UHGV virus genome: UHGV-0092352
DNA: 13,933 bases
Strand: one strand, 5' to 3'
DNA from: a virus
The notes beneath the pieces were generated by a model. That model was not told the origin of the DNA. It saw only the letters and a program-made list of their open reading frames with translations, and ran no database searches. A program made the position numbers and the translations under genes. This document shows positions 2,136 to 6,033 of the stretch, piece after piece. Positions within the stretch are counted from its first letter, which is position 1, and every line of letters starts with the position of its first letter.

Positions 2136-2426
2136 ATGTCAGAAATAAAATCGCTGGTCACTGCTGAGGCAGTGAAGGAAGTCCTGCGCTCTGAAGAAGT
2201 CCGGAGCGCACTGAAACAGCAACTTCGGCAGAACCTTGAGGCGCGTCTTGATGCAGAAGTGGATTCAATTCTGGATGAATTGCTTGGTGCACAGCCGGAA
2301 CCATCCCCGGAACTGCTTCCGGAACCACAGGCGGAAGATGTCACCACGGAAAATGGTGATATTCAGCCGGAGTCACCGGTGACGGATATGACAGACACAC
2401 AACCCGAACCGGGCACAATGCTGTAA
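2136..2426 (+). CDS. Hypothetical acidic protein (96 aa; helical N-terminus, Pro/Glu-rich tail)
   Basis: ATG at 2136 (MSEIKSLV...) preceded by GAGAAA 5 nt upstream. The listed ORF start at 1962 is upstream read-through in the same frame. A terminator-like hairpin follows 10 nt after the stop. Confidence 0.5.
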   Translation: MSEIKSLVTAEAVKEVLRSEEVRSALKQQLRQNLEARLDAEVDSILDELLGAQPEPSPELLPEPQAEDVTTENGDIQPESPVTDMTDTQPEPGTML

Positions 2427-2435
2427 CGGCGGGGC

Positions 2436-2478
2436 AGGGCCATCAGTAAAGAGCTGGTGGCCCTTTTGTTGTTGTGAG
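2436..2478 (+). terminator. Rho-independent terminator-like hairpin immediately upstream of the holin gene
   Basis: 11-bp stem (2436-2446 AGGGCCATCAG / 2454-2464 CTGGTGGCCCT, one G-U pair), 7-nt loop, then the T-rich tract TTTGTTGTTGTG. Confidence 0.5.
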
Positions 2479-2501
2479 CTTCCGAGTACGGGAGACGGGG
2501 T

Positions 2502-2717
2502 ATGTACCAGATGGAAAAAATCACAACAGGTGTGTCATACACCACGTCAGCGGTGGGAACGGGCTACTGGTTCCTGCAGTTGCTGGACAGGGTTTCCCCG
2601 TCTCAGTGGGCGGCAATAGGCGTGCTGGGGAGTCTGCTGTTTGGGCTGCTGACATATCTGACTAACCTGTATTTCAAAATCAGAGAGGACCGTCGTAAGG
2701 CAGCGCGGGGAGAGTAA
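2502..2717 (+). CDS. S: Pinholin, S21-like class II holin with dual-start motif (holin/antiholin)
   Basis: 71-aa protein [10 protein letters not shown]... with two TM segments ([14 protein letters not shown]; [18 protein letters not shown]) and a charged C-terminus [11 protein letters not shown], closely resembling phage 21 / 933W S as I recall it. Two in-frame starts, ATG 2502 and ATG 2511 (Met1/Met4). GGAG 7 nt upstream of 2502. Confidence 0.85.
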
Positions 2718-2721
2718 GGCG

Positions 2722-3252
2722 ATGAATAAACAATACAAACTGGTTGTTAAAGGGATAAATAATTACCCGGATAAGATTACTGCTACTGTGGCACTGGAAA
2801 TTGGTGGGTATCCGTCACTGTTGTTGCCATATGTGGCGATTAGTCTTGACCGTACTGAAGGTGCCACGCTGGAGTTTTACGAAGCTGAGGCGAAAAAACA
2901 GGCGAAGCAGTTTTTCATGGATATTGCTGCCGCTTTATGTGAAGGGGATGAGCAGTCGCCGGAAAAGCGCCCCATAATTTTAGAGGCGCAGGATGTGTTG
3001 ATAACCTACAGAGGAAAACTACCGGGAATAATTACGGGTTCTCTGAAGACGCCACCGACGGCATTGCGGTCAGAAAACGATGATATTGAATCACGCATTG
3101 AAAAACTGGAGTGCTATATCGCTGAATTGAAAAAAAGCATCCCAACAAAAAATGAGGTGCTTGCAGCAGATGAAATGAAAGAAACTATTCTTGATCGCGC
3201 GGCGCATCTAAGCTGCGCTTCACTGTTGAAAGAGCATCTTCAGCAGCCTTGA
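2722..3252 (+). CDS. Hypothetical protein (176 aa) inserted between holin and endolysin; function unknown
   Basis: ATG 2722 lies 4 nt after the S stop, with GGGAGAG 8 nt upstream (translationally coupled position). GC content is clearly lower than flanking phage genes (about 40% in the first 120 nt by hand count). No motif I recognise; N-terminal beta-like region and C-terminal helical region. Confidence 0.6.
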   Translation: MNKQYKLVVKGINNYPDKITATVALEIGGYPSLLLPYVAISLDRTEGATLEFYEAEAKKQAKQFFMDIAAALCEGDEQSPEKRPIILEAQDVLITYRGKLPGIITGSLKTPPTALRSENDDIESRIEKLECYIAELKKSIPTKNEVLAADEMKETILDRAAHLSCASLLKEHLQQP

Positions 3253-3485
3253 GGAATCTTTTATCATCACGAGCAACTGTCTTTGGTATTTCTTTAATTA
3301 GATGTTCCATTTCGGCGATCAGGTAATCTGACACAGCGTTATTTTTACTTAGTGCATCCATTGCTTTGATTATCTTTGCGAGGCAGCCATCTCGCATTGT
3401 TGAGTTTACGCCAGTGCCCACCACTGGCGGGCTGAAGACTTAACATATCCAGGGATTCGGAACCGATAAATCCTGATAAATATCC

Positions 3486-4019
3486 ATGAACGCAAAAATC
3501 AGATACGGCCTGTCGGCTGCCATTCTGGCGCTGATTACTGCAGGCGCATCTGCGCCTGACATTCTCGACCAGTTTCTGGATGAAAAAGAAGGTAACCACA
3601 CCACAGCATACCGTGATGGTTCTGGTATATGGACCATCTGCCGTGGTGCCACCCGGGTGGATGGTAAGCCTGTCGTCCCCGGCATGAAGTTGTCGAAGGA
3701 AAAATGCGACCAGGTTAACGCCATTGAGCGTGATAAAGCGCTGGCGTGGGTGGAGAAAAACATCAGAGTGCCGCTGACCGAACCCCAGAAAGCGGGGATC
3801 GCGTCATTCTGTCCGTACAACATTGGTCCCGGTAAGTGTTTCCCGTCGACGTTTTATAAACGAATTAATGCAGGCGATCGCAGGGGGGCGTGTGAGGCGA
3901 TTCGCTGGTGGATTAAGGACGGTGGCAGAGACTGCCGTATTCGCTCAAACAACTGTTACGGTCAGGTATCCCGTCGTGACCAGGAGAGCGCGCTGGCGTG
4001 CTGGGGAATCGACAGATAA
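3486..4019 (+). CDS. R: SAR endolysin (T4-lysozyme-like muramidase, GH24) with N-terminal signal-anchor-release domain
   Basis: N-terminus MNAKIRYGLSAAILALITAGASAP is a Gly/Ala-rich SAR helix. Catalytic E-8aa-D-5aa-T spacing is present (EGNHTTAYRD...GSGIWT). Resembles 933W / phage 21 R from memory. No recognisable SD precedes ATG 3486. Confidence 0.9.
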   Translation: MNAKIRYGLSAAILALITAGASAPDILDQFLDEKEGNHTTAYRDGSGIWTICRGATRVDGKPVVPGMKLSKEKCDQVNAIERDKALAWVEKNIRVPLTEPQKAGIASFCPYNIGPGKCFPSTFYKRINAGDRRGACEAIRWWIKDGGRDCRIRSNNCYGQVSRRDQESALACWGIDR

Positions 4020-4109
4020 GCAGAATATTTTGCTGAAAAATGCCGTTGGTCAACGCGGGCGGATAACACGAAGTCCTGTGAACTGGCAAAACCTAAGTGA
4101 ATAAAAGTA

Positions 4110-4150
4110 AAAACCCCGTTTGTTGGCAGCAAGCGGGGTTTTGTGTTTCT
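4110..4150. terminator. Bidirectional intrinsic terminator between R and the downstream small genes
   Basis: Stem AAAACCCCG (4110-4118) / CGGGGTTTT (4134-4142), extendable through inner pairs to about 15 bp. A-rich tract on the left and U-rich tract (GTGTTTCT) on the right, so it looks like a terminator in both orientations. Confidence 0.6.
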
Positions 4151-4175
4151 GACCTTGGATAAGGCAAGGGAGAAC

Positions 4176-4358
4176 ATGGAAAAGTATAAACGAATTCTGT
4201 TGAGGTTGACTATGAAAAACGGCCTTGAACTGAAAGCGCCTGTAACTGATGACATCAGCAGAGCACTGGCTTTTGCCATTAAGTGGGTGGCGGTCGGTGT
4301 TGCTGTGTCCCCGATGCTGTATGGGCTGGCAAAACTGGTCATTGCGTTGAAATCGTGA
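4176..4358 (+). CDS. Small hypothetical membrane protein (60 aa, C-terminal TM helix)
   Basis: ATG 4176 (MEKYKRILLRL...) preceded by AAGGGAG. C-terminal hydrophobic segment AFAIKWVAVGVAVSPMLYGLAKLVIAL. The listed ORF start at 4143 (GTG) is less likely. Confidence 0.4.
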   Translation: MEKYKRILLRLTMKNGLELKAPVTDDISRALAFAIKWVAVGVAVSPMLYGLAKLVIALKS

Positions 4359-4372
4359 AGGGAGGATTAAGC

Positions 4373-4504
4373 ATGTCAGACAAACTCATAACGCTGGCGA
4401 AGATCCTCTGTGTAATTGTCGGCATTTCATTTTCACTAATGCTGGTTGCCATTTTCTTTTCCACCGCCTGGCGAGTCCTGACGTTATCGGGACTGGTGGG
4501 GTGA
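4373..4504 (+). CDS. Small hypothetical membrane protein (43 aa, single TM helix)
   Basis: Strong SD GAAGGGAGGA 5 nt before ATG 4373. [33 protein letters not shown]... is a single TM helix. Stop TGA at 4502-4504, 7 nt before the Rz start. Confidence 0.5.
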
Positions 4505-4511
4505 AAGAGAG

Positions 4512-4979
4512 ATGAGCCGTGTTCTGTGTGTGGTGATTATTGTCCTGGCGGGTGGCTGTGGTGCGCTGTGGCTGGCAACAGACCATTACCGCGATAACGC
4601 CATCACCTACAAAGCGCAGCGCGATAAAAAAGCCAGAGAGCTGGAGCTGGCAAACGCCACCATTACTGATATGCAGGTGCGCCAGCGCGATGTTGCTGCG
4701 CTCGATGCAAAATACTCGAGGGAATTAGCCGATGCGAGAGCTGAAAATGAAACTCTGCGTGCTGATGTTGCCGCTGGTCGTAAGCGCCTGCGGATCAACG
4801 CCACCTGCTCCGGTACCGTGCGTGAAGCCACCGGCACCTCCGGCATGGATAATGCAACCGGCCCCCGACTGGCAGACACCGCTGAACGGGATTATTTCAC
4901 CCTCAGAGAGCGGTTGATGACAATGCAGAAGCAACTGGAAGGGGCGCAGGACTATATCCGCACTCAGTGTATTAACTAG
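4512..4979 (+). CDS. Rz: i-spanin Rz (inner-membrane spanin subunit)
   Basis: 155 aa with N-terminal TM ([19 protein letters not shown]) and a coiled-coil periplasmic domain. SD GAAAGAGAG upstream. Typical position after the endolysin; Rz1 is embedded in the +1 frame. Confidence 0.85.
4732..4917 (+). CDS. Rz1: o-spanin Rz1 (outer-membrane lipoprotein, nested within Rz)
   Basis: [20 protein letters not shown] has a lipobox (VSAC) followed by a proline-rich mature region ([36 protein letters not shown]), very similar to lambda Rz1 as I recall it. Entirely inside Rz in a different frame. Confidence 0.8.
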
Positions 4980-5425: not shown

Positions 5426-5626
5426 TCATTTCTCGTTATTTTTCATGCTGGCCGGGCGCAGATGCGTTGCATCTGTTGCCAGCCTTCTCCTGCAGGCTTC
5501 AATAACCCACGCTGAAAAGTTACCGGATCCTTTATGCTCAAGGGCGATGTTGATCTGTTCAATCATGTGATTGGGGAAACGGATATTGCGGGTTGTGGTT
5601 CTGCGGGTCCGGTTTTTCGATGACAT
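5426..5626 (-). CDS. YlcI/YnfO-family (DUF3950-like) small prophage protein; putative ribbon-helix-helix-like DNA binder
   Basis: Minus-strand ORF. Best start is ATG at 5626 (MSSKNRTRRTTTRNIRFPNHMIEQINIALEHKGSGNFSAWVIEACRRRL...) with AGGAA SD (TAAAGGAAATAAAT ATG). The same family and position (between lysis genes and terminase) occur in E. coli DLP12/Qin prophages, from memory. Confidence 0.7.
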   Translation of the reverse strand: MSSKNRTRRTTTRNIRFPNHMIEQINIALEHKGSGNFSAWVIEACRRRLATDATHLRPASMKNNEK

Positions 5627-5667
5627 ATTTATTTCCTTTACTGATTGCCATATGACGGGGATTTTAC

Positions 5668-6033
5668 ATGGCTCAGCTTCGTACACTCCAGAGCAGAATC
5701 AAAACACTGAATACCCGACGGGTGAATATTCTGAAGGGGGAGCAGCGTCGTGTCAGTGGCAGTGCACGTGTTTCCCTCAAGCGTCATATCTGGCTGAGGG
5801 ACGCCGGGCAGTGCTGTATCTGTGGTCGTGTGGTTGACCTCTGTGACAGTGAACTTGATCACCGAATTGCACTTCAGTTCGGTGGTGGTAATGAGGAGAC
5901 GAATCTCTGGACGCTCTGTACCGAATGCCATCGACAAAAGTCTGCTCGTGAAGCGGCGGGTGGTATGCCGGACCCGACGCTGCCGGAGGTGTCCGGAGGT
6001 AGTGGCAGAGCGGACGACATCATCGGACTGTAA
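5668..6033 (+). CDS. HNH endonuclease (terminase-associated)
   Basis: Zinc-finger HNH signature: CCICGR...DHRIALQFGG...N...CTECHRQK. Located immediately upstream of the terminase genes, as in HK97/P27-type packaging modules. Confidence 0.85.
   Translation: MAQLRTLQSRIKTLNTRRVNILKGEQRRVSGSARVSLKRHIWLRDAGQCCICGRVVDLCDSELDHRIALQFGGGNEETNLWTLCTECHRQKSAREAAGGMPDPTLPEVSGGSGRADDIIGL

Follow-up and report, generated by a model that had tools for sequence, protein, structure and literature searches.

A YdfR/DUF1327-family gene and a reverse-strand gene remnant form an accessory cassette between the holin and endolysin genes of a lambdoid prophage

The window analysed here, meaning the whole 13,933-nucleotide (nt) stretch of virus genome UHGV-0092352, is the late region of a lambdoid, Shiga toxin (Stx)-type prophage, in which a block of foreign composition separates the phage-21-type pinholin gene S from R, the gene for a signal-arrest-release (SAR)-type endolysin (Table 1). 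The block (2722–3485) opens with ORF176, an open reading frame (ORF) of 176 codons with an ATG start, and places R 768 nt from S. Its GC content of 0.441, compared with 0.549 for the whole window, is the lowest of any 764-bp stretch in the window (percentile 0.001), and GC at third codon positions (GC3) is 0.435 in ORF176 as against 0.60–0.66 in S, R, Rz and terL. The S stop codon TAA (2715–2717) is followed by GGCG and then by the ATG of ORF176 at 2722, a spacing of 4 nt, with a Shine–Dalgarno (SD) motif, GGAG, 9 nt upstream of the ATG within the 3′ end of S. All of this bears out a first-pass annotation made from the sequence alone, which had noted a lower-GC block of ~760 bp carrying a 176-aa ORF with a good SD and had proposed the GC and codon-usage comparison. 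The start context is TAAGGCGATG for ORF176 and TAAGCTGATG for R in uninterrupted cassettes; the ORF176 start occupies the translational-coupling position that R holds in such cassettes. Since ORF176 takes the ribosome-binding context of R, the Q-dependent late transcript should yield it along with the lysis proteins, as that annotation had expected from its position. Between the DUF826 gene and S lies a strong terminator-like hairpin (2436–2464; 12-bp stem followed by a T-run), through which Q antitermination presumably carries late transcription. An Rfam search over 2300–4600 returned no match.

ORF176 had been described as an unrecognised protein without a motif; profile searches place it clearly in the YdfR/DUF1327 family. 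It scores 137.1 bits against the Pfam DUF1327 model (PF07041; cut-off 25) with coverage of aa 1–112, and each of the 22 diverse core sequences used in the comparison matched DUF1327 and no other family. The assignment is close to certain, and ORF176 is a genuine, intact member of the family. NCBI names copies 97–98% identical in complete Escherichia coli genomes 'YdfR family protein'. The founding member, ydfR (b1555) of the K-12 Qin prophage, lies in the same order as in the window, essQ (holin)–ydfR–rrrQ (lysozyme), between a class II holin and a lysozyme and with the same start spacing after the holin stop. Its core is 49% identical to that of ORF176, with the invariant residues kept. K-12 YdfR differs in comprising 103 aa, a core with a short helix, in an end that overlaps the rrrQ start, and in having neither the coiled-coil module nor a reverse-strand neighbour. 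Because ORF176 is an annotated family member at its standard location, the gene family, the Pfam model, the NCBI name and the holin–endolysin position were already on record, including in E. coli K-12.

The family is common within a narrow taxonomic range. DNA corresponding to the N-terminal 339 nt of ORF176 is present in 2876 of 5426 complete E. coli genomes, and the holin allele of the window in 2450 of the same set. Phages H-19B, BP-4795 and Stx2-86 and many Stx1a, Stx2a and Stx2c phages carry family members; a published analysis of Stx2a flanking regions ends at S. Profile searching of 1.84 billion representative proteins yielded 100 DUF1327 clusters, the named ones being from Escherichia, Shigella, Salmonella, Morganella and Cronobacter. 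Members are 72–76, 103, 113–116, 176, 183, 211, 246, 268, 287, 296, 305 or 328 aa long, and frameshifted and truncated members are common.

Occupancy of the S–R slot was surveyed in 80 IMG/VR contigs with a holin 97–100% identical to that of the window, 71 of which also contain R. The slot holds a DUF1327 gene in 48 of these loci and another insert in 12, while S is followed directly by R in 11; it is thus usually occupied, with YdfR/DUF1327 as the usual occupant. The premise that S normally runs directly into R holds for phage 21 and lambda but fails for E. coli prophages with this holin. The block behaves as an exchangeable accessory (moron-type) cassette and is compositionally foreign. The first-pass annotation was accordingly right to see such a cassette in the late operon and wrong to call its gene unrecognised and its insertion sporadic. 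It had also named conservation with a known function in the S–R interval as evidence against its view; conservation in common lambdoid phages is found, while a known function is not established. Alternative occupants include a 185-aa protein with a coiled coil and a ~130-aa C-terminal module but no DUF1327 core (L016 and L022; S–R gap ~600 bp) and a 210–233-aa reverse-strand gene with no family match (L017 and L085). Compound slots hold two forward genes and one reverse gene (L026 and L007).

ORF176 encodes a soluble, acidic protein of 19.6 kDa (isoelectric point 5.2) with no membrane segment (maximum 19-residue hydropathy 1.29). Four modules follow one another: the core, a linker predicted to be disordered, a coiled coil and a tail. 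The core, the sole part common to all family members, was modelled as β-β-β-α, with antiparallel strands at residues 5–14, 18–27 and 37–43 followed by a long helix (50–74). Its YE motif (Y53, E54) is invariant, and the R44-x-E46-G47 ... L50-E-F-Y-E54 block is made up of invariant or near-invariant columns (18-, 53- and 22-sequence alignments), each of them kept by the window protein. The family-wide ratio of non-synonymous to synonymous substitution rates (dN/dS) of 0.45 for the core indicates purifying selection. Alignment of the length classes revealed that the short forms (113–116 aa) stop at the linker. In the full-length model, with a predicted local distance difference test score (pLDDT) of 59, residues 74–119 are disordered and helices follow. 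The non-overlapping part of the coiled-coil module has a dN/dS of 0.36 between the window and Citrobacter. The sequence and structure check that had been proposed for the protein yielded a family by Pfam and PHROG, while the fold search with the full-length model retrieved generic helical hairpins only. The BFVD fold search gave nothing at E ≤ 0.001, and the PDB sequence search with the family profile and the NCBIfam search were negative.

Table 1 Features of the S–R block and of its surroundings in the window (pTM, predicted template modelling score)
Feature	Position (nt)	Strand	Basis or remark
ORF176, YdfR/DUF1327-family protein	2722–3252	+	PF07041 E 2.4e-40; phrog_2091 full length E 2.5e-79
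DUF1327 core, aa 1–75	2722–2946	+	AlphaFold model, pLDDT 87.9, pTM 0.77 (diverse alignment)
Linker, aa 76–113	2947–3060	+	Predicted disordered, pLDDT 35–44
Coiled-coil module, aa 114–154	3061–3184	+	Model helices 113–138 and 143–173
Tail, aa 155–176	3185–3252	+	Antisense of reverse gene 3′ end
Reverse-strand moron gene remnant, phrog_18136 type	3185–3382	−	aa 27–91 and stop of 91-aa gene (tblastn)
Deletion scar	3370–3378		One copy of 9-bp repeat TTATCTTTG
R leader, conserved	3409–3485		Hairpin and proximal block; alignment with relatives
S, phage-21-type pinholin	2502–2717	+	PF04971 (P21 holin family) E 9e-33; phrog_9876/phrog_20 holin
R, SAR-type endolysin	3486–4019	+	PF00959 (phage lysozyme) E 1.4e-24; phrog_7
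SASA esterase	61–1776
DUF1378 and DUF826 genes	Between SASA esterase and pinholin S
Two small ORFs	After R		Followed by Rz/Rz1 (4512–4979)
HNH gene, terminase, portal and head genes	Downstream of Rz/Rz1

Downstream of the coiled-coil module the block holds the remnant of a gene on the opposite strand, which the first-pass annotation had missed together with the mosaic build of ORF176. A minus-strand ORF at 3185–3424 matches PHROG 18136 (E 5e-41), and the remnant overlaps the last 68 nt of ORF176. Intact copies have been annotated in G1/2 (WP_021565043) and O103 strains of E. coli, with products of 91 and 87 aa, and the E. coli variants show an in-frame 12-nt indel. The part of the gene that does not overlap ORF176 has a dN/dS of 0.12 among E. 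coli variants and 0.17 in comparison with the Citrobacter homologue; AT and GC skew change sign over 3151–3450. These features mark the phrog_18136-type gene as real. Alignment with the G1/2 and O103 loci showed that intact relatives carry two copies of TTATCTTTG exactly 100 bp apart (L002:3471 and 3571). The 100 bp missing from the window hold AAGGAACAGATATG and ~28 codons of the reverse gene, and their loss takes away its start codon and AAGGA ribosome-binding site. In the window the remnant has no start codon or ribosome-binding site of its own for the 87–91-aa product, and a promoter scan for the remnant gave no convincing site. The same deletion occurs in many other genomes, and deleted and intact variants both circulate in E. 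coli.

The remaining stretch up to R is a conserved leader. Its hairpin (3409–3429) has the form CGCCAGTG-CCCAC-CACTGGCG with an 8-bp stem, and its proximal block ends ...GATAAATATCC ahead of the R ATG. The proximal block was found in 45 of 86 loci and the hairpin in 14 of 86, each time 53 nt upstream of the proximal block. Intact relatives have the reverse-gene start just within the proximal block of this region. With both elements identified, the 233 bp after ORF176 resolve into a gene remnant plus a conserved leader.

Homologues of the reverse gene also occur with no DUF1327 gene nearby, in Citrobacter (70% identity) and on a metagenome contig (66%), and both keep the C-terminus; the final 22 residues of ORF176 are thus read antisense to a native, conserved stretch of that gene. 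Within the overlap, dN/dS is 0.97 in the ORF176 frame compared with 0.34 in the reverse-gene frame, so that the ORF176 tail looks accidental and is apparently unconstrained in its own frame. The coiled-coil module presents a different picture. Citrobacter sp. Cpo113 has a stand-alone 57-aa ORF (L105:3191–3364, −) that is homologous to aa 120–176 of ORF176 and overlaps the reverse gene (L105:3001–3258, +) tail-to-tail by 68 nt. This pair lies just upstream of a holin and includes no DUF1327 domain. The matching overlap indicates that the overlapping pair is conserved across genera. On these comparisons the coiled-coil module is not accidental, and ORF176 is a DUF1327 core and linker fused to a coiled-coil module that accompanies the phrog_18136-type partner.

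The same anatomy raises the alternative that ORF176 is a decaying remnant, a truncated YdfR fused to the antisense of a deleted neighbour and functionless in this phage. PGAP labels the nearest copies truncated pseudogenes 'missing C-terminus'. These flags are explained by the 211-aa form (e.g., in phage PhiR5_1), which runs beyond the stop of ORF176 into a KRRDEQFAAF... module, the two diverging exactly at that stop. ORF176 correspondingly lacks the C-terminal KRRDEQFAAF...RN motif common to the 183-, 211-, 296- and 305-aa forms. The unconstrained antisense tail, the 100-bp deletion in the adjacent reverse gene and the frequency of frameshifted or truncated relatives would also fit decay. Against it, the frame is intact through all conserved modules, the 176-aa architecture recurs with both N-terminal clades at 69–93% identity, and the core and the coiled coil are under purifying selection. 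Moreover, forms consisting of core and linker only (113–116 aa) are abundant, with up to 1129 member sequences in one cluster, so that the C-terminus is not needed for retention. On balance, decay appears quite unlikely.

Relatives of ORF176 are inserted at further places in phage genomes. Among the tail genes, Salmonella phages ES18 and Oslo and loci L089 and L101 have the DUF1327 gene between M and L, and L099 and L107 have it between or after I and J. In Morganella it directly precedes the holin, in Salmonella L092 it separates another holin from the lysozyme, and in Cronobacter it follows Rz. Four single-protein scans of viral contigs, run to widen the context sample, added one new locus. 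In all ten remote, independent contexts a reverse ORF of 70–105 aa comes next, arranged tail-to-tail with the DUF1327 gene; the two are at most 28 nt apart or overlap by up to 53 nt. A number of the E. coli forms likewise have a tail-to-tail reverse neighbour, drawn from yet other partner types. At least eight families of partner proteins can be told apart, each with a separate PHROG (among them 10490, 18136, 2572, 1853, 2411 and 25324). Among the closest known counterparts are ES18 gp24–gp25 ('possible morons') and vB_SosS_Oslo gp23–gp24, in which a late-strand DUF1327 gene is followed by a ~95-aa reverse gene tail-to-tail; an ES18-like pair also lies inside an E. coli S–R slot (L007). The ES18 and Oslo pairs differ from the block in sitting between M and L rather than in the lysis cassette. 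In addition, ES18 gp24 is core only (86 aa), and gp25 is at best remotely related to the partner type of the window (BLASTP E 0.006; hhalign probability 4%). A Morganella morganii protein of 224 aa recorded as 'phage tail tip fiber protein' (P0239) matches both the Phage_Tail_Tip Pfam model and DUF1327; probably the gene caller fused the last part of gene J to a DUF1327 gene beside it, which would fit an insertion site in the tail operon.

This distribution bears directly on lysis timing, one of the roles first proposed, in which ORF176 would tune pinholin triggering or the release of the SAR endolysin. Its place between S and R, with the translational position of R, would suit such a regulator, and three of the five kinds of insertion site touch the lysis cassette. 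In the window, R is separated from the S-coupled start found in uninterrupted cassettes, and no obvious SD for R is seen in its leader, so that the cassette may alter R dosage. ORF176, however, has no membrane segment or signal sequence, and over-expression of K-12 YdfR had no effect on growth (PMC13232886). Because the same holin (97–100% identity) adjoins empty slots in 11 of the 71 loci and relatives lie inside tail operons far from lysis genes, a lysis-timing role is unlikely. ORF176 is very probably not a lysis component, and a regulator of this specific kind seems highly improbable.

The least probable alternative, and one to which we attach very little weight, is the classical moron, a superinfection exclusion, defence or host-directed factor made in the lysogen. 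The low GC and foreign codon usage of the block and the exchangeability of the slot agree with it, and the GenBank record of Casjens and colleagues labels ES18 gp24 a 'possible moron'. The evidence on expression speaks against it. No promoter-like site was found upstream of ORF176 beyond the late operon, the terminator-like hairpin lies ahead of S, and the ORF176 gene is co-oriented and coupled with S. K-12 ydfR likewise shows almost no RNA-seq reads under standard growth (PMC13232886). The candidate role in anti-phage defence did not gain support from PADLOC-DB, in which no family matched ORF176, the long members P0048 and P0007 or the L017-type reverse-strand protein at E ≤ 0.01. Among six small partner types, five were without a match and the 91-aa type had one marginal match (Aga_Nuclease, E 0.0048). 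A prophage-expressed role better suits the reverse-strand neighbour.

We read the block as the usual accessory cassette of the S–R slot in E. coli phage-21-type lysis operons, composed of ORF176 and a crippled reverse-strand moron, with a proposed late role linked to RNase E and to the partner; we put the probability of this reading at about 55%. ORF176 would then be a late-made cytoplasmic adaptor that uses its core to dock on RNA and on the catalytic half of RNase E, and that the coiled coil may render multivalent. It would act late in infection and be functionally tied to its reverse-strand partner by a 'noncontiguous operon' logic, in which the reverse gene is expressed from the prophage and the forward gene is made only in lytic growth, where it might neutralise the product of the reverse gene or clear its antisense-paired transcript. 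The window copy of ORF176 would be the orphan of such a pair, the partner having lost its start. A functional link between ORF176 and a reverse partner is plausible at slightly less than even odds, whereas docking on RNase E by this particular allele, argued by analogy, seems rather unlikely.

The RNase E component draws on the K-12 homologue. Residues 1–72 of K-12 YdfR were sufficient for two-hybrid signals with RNase E 1–597 and with RNase G; Rne 1–598 co-eluted with Strep-YdfR, and DNase-resistant nucleic acid co-purified (PMC13232886, 2026). YdfR thereby resembles RapZ, the E. coli RNase E adaptor, in that it contacts only constructs with the RNase E catalytic half and co-purifies RNA (PMC13232886). 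Neither RapZ nor Dip (phage phiKZ gp37) is homologous to YdfR. Dip binds the C-terminal scaffold of RNase E, not the catalytic half.

The partner component has a tested precedent in the 'noncontiguous operon' of phage phi80, made up of the reverse-oriented immune gene tai and of ati, a small counter-defence gene in the late operon (He et al. 2024, PMC11364771). In that layout a reverse gene breaks into the Q-dependent late operon next to a small forward gene, close to lysis or packaging modules; a comparable layout is seen in relatives of the block, the reverse gene being truncated in the window. Unlike tai and ati, which are head-to-head, DUF1327 pairs are tail-to-tail, and the inhibition of tail assembly in other phages, lifted by the forward gene, is a trait of Tai/Ati. 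BLASTP and HMM searches found no match between phi80 orf62–66 (including TaiEcA, 204 aa, and AtiEcA, 76 aa) and ORF176, the DUF1327 cores or any of the partner types.

Several observations weigh against the reading of the block as a cassette with a specifically paired, RNase E-linked late function. Over-expression of K-12 YdfR changed few transcripts and did not slow growth, and the authors could not exclude an RNA-binding contaminant in the YdfR preparation (PMC13232886). The RNase E data, moreover, concern a homologue with a core only 49% identical. With respect to specific pairing, cores 89% identical (L099 and L102) adjoin unrelated partners, and partners 64–75% identical adjoin cores only 25–43% alike. 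Many E. coli copies, such as K-12 Qin and the 114-aa and 296-aa forms, have no partner beside them, and the window-type partner occurs without a DUF1327 gene, in Citrobacter and on the metagenome contig. Mutual homology of the partner families was not established by BLASTP or by hhalign with thin profiles, the best partner–partner hints in hhalign being 15–27% probability for the gp25-type against the L024-type and 9% for the G1/2-type against the Morganella-type. By these comparisons, pairing is not specific at the level of the DUF1327 core. Strong constraint on ORF176 is also put in question by the PGAP pseudogene flags on the nearest copies and by the core itself, which differs from the E. 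coli G1/2 allele by 0 synonymous and 5 non-synonymous changes. A 2014 study by Paradis-Bleau that is cited elsewhere for an envelope phenotype of ydfR does not mention ydfR in its main text.

These points also frame an alternative at the protein level, in which ORF176 would be a late self-immunity protein that binds the reverse-strand defence or exclusion protein, probably via its coiled coil and with no involvement of RNase E; orphans would protect the phage against partner-type defences of resident prophages. The tail-to-tail pair is kept at five kinds of insertion site, Citrobacter inherits the coiled-coil module and its partner as a unit lacking the DUF1327 core, and the divergence of close alleles consists mostly of amino-acid changes, all of which would agree with such an antidote. 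Tai/Ati shows that lambdoid phages use this gene logic, Ati binding its Tai (PMC11364771). Weighing on the other side are the lack of sequence homology to TaiEcA or AtiEcA, the PADLOC-DB search with its single marginal match, and the convergent arrangement of DUF1327 pairs as opposed to the head-to-head tai and ati. Partners are, in addition, swapped freely among DUF1327 clades, which argues against cognate protein recognition by the core. We consider a protein antidote improbable, though less so than decay or a lysis function.

Extending the cassette reading beyond the window leads to a more speculative proposal. Temperate phages of Enterobacterales may carry a widespread, so far unrecognised class of two-gene cassettes of the 'noncontiguous operon' kind, each consisting of a DUF1327 core and/or coiled-coil gene and a tail-to-tail reverse ORF. 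In such cassettes the reverse gene would supply an exclusion or defence factor, expressed from the prophage and recruited from many interchangeable families, and the forward gene would be a general, late-made off-switch, acting by RNase E hand-over of the antisense-paired partner transcript or by binding of the partner protein. Hand-over of an antisense-paired transcript would explain how one conserved core can serve unrelated partners. We advance this only tentatively, as improbable. If true, most Stx and lambdoid prophages would carry orphans such as ORF176 as stand-alone counter-measures.

Carried by over half of the complete E. coli genomes and by many of the Stx1a-, Stx2a- and Stx2c-converting phages sequenced so far, YdfR-family genes encode proteins with no established function that are predicted to be made alongside the lysis proteins that release Shiga toxin. 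Two leads emerge from this analysis. Members of the family are nearly always accompanied by a reverse-strand partner, at several insertion sites, and their proteins are built from separable modules (core, coiled coil and variable C-terminus), the coiled coil and one partner type being co-inherited across genera. Taken with the 2026 report of RNase E binding by K-12 YdfR, these leads would make the function of the family testable.

Two further features of the late region were noted. A second variable slot lies between R and Rz (4020–4511; GC 0.474). In the window it holds a terminator-like hairpin (4110–4142) followed by overlapping small ORFs at 4143–4358 (phrog_1115) and 4283–4504 (phrog_4906), and in other phages it holds ant or different small ORFs. 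Farther downstream, an 86-aa reverse ORF (5426–5686, −) lies inside the late region just before the HNH endonuclease gene (5668–6033), with a slight overlap; a 98%-identical genome annotates a YlcI/YnfO family protein at this place.

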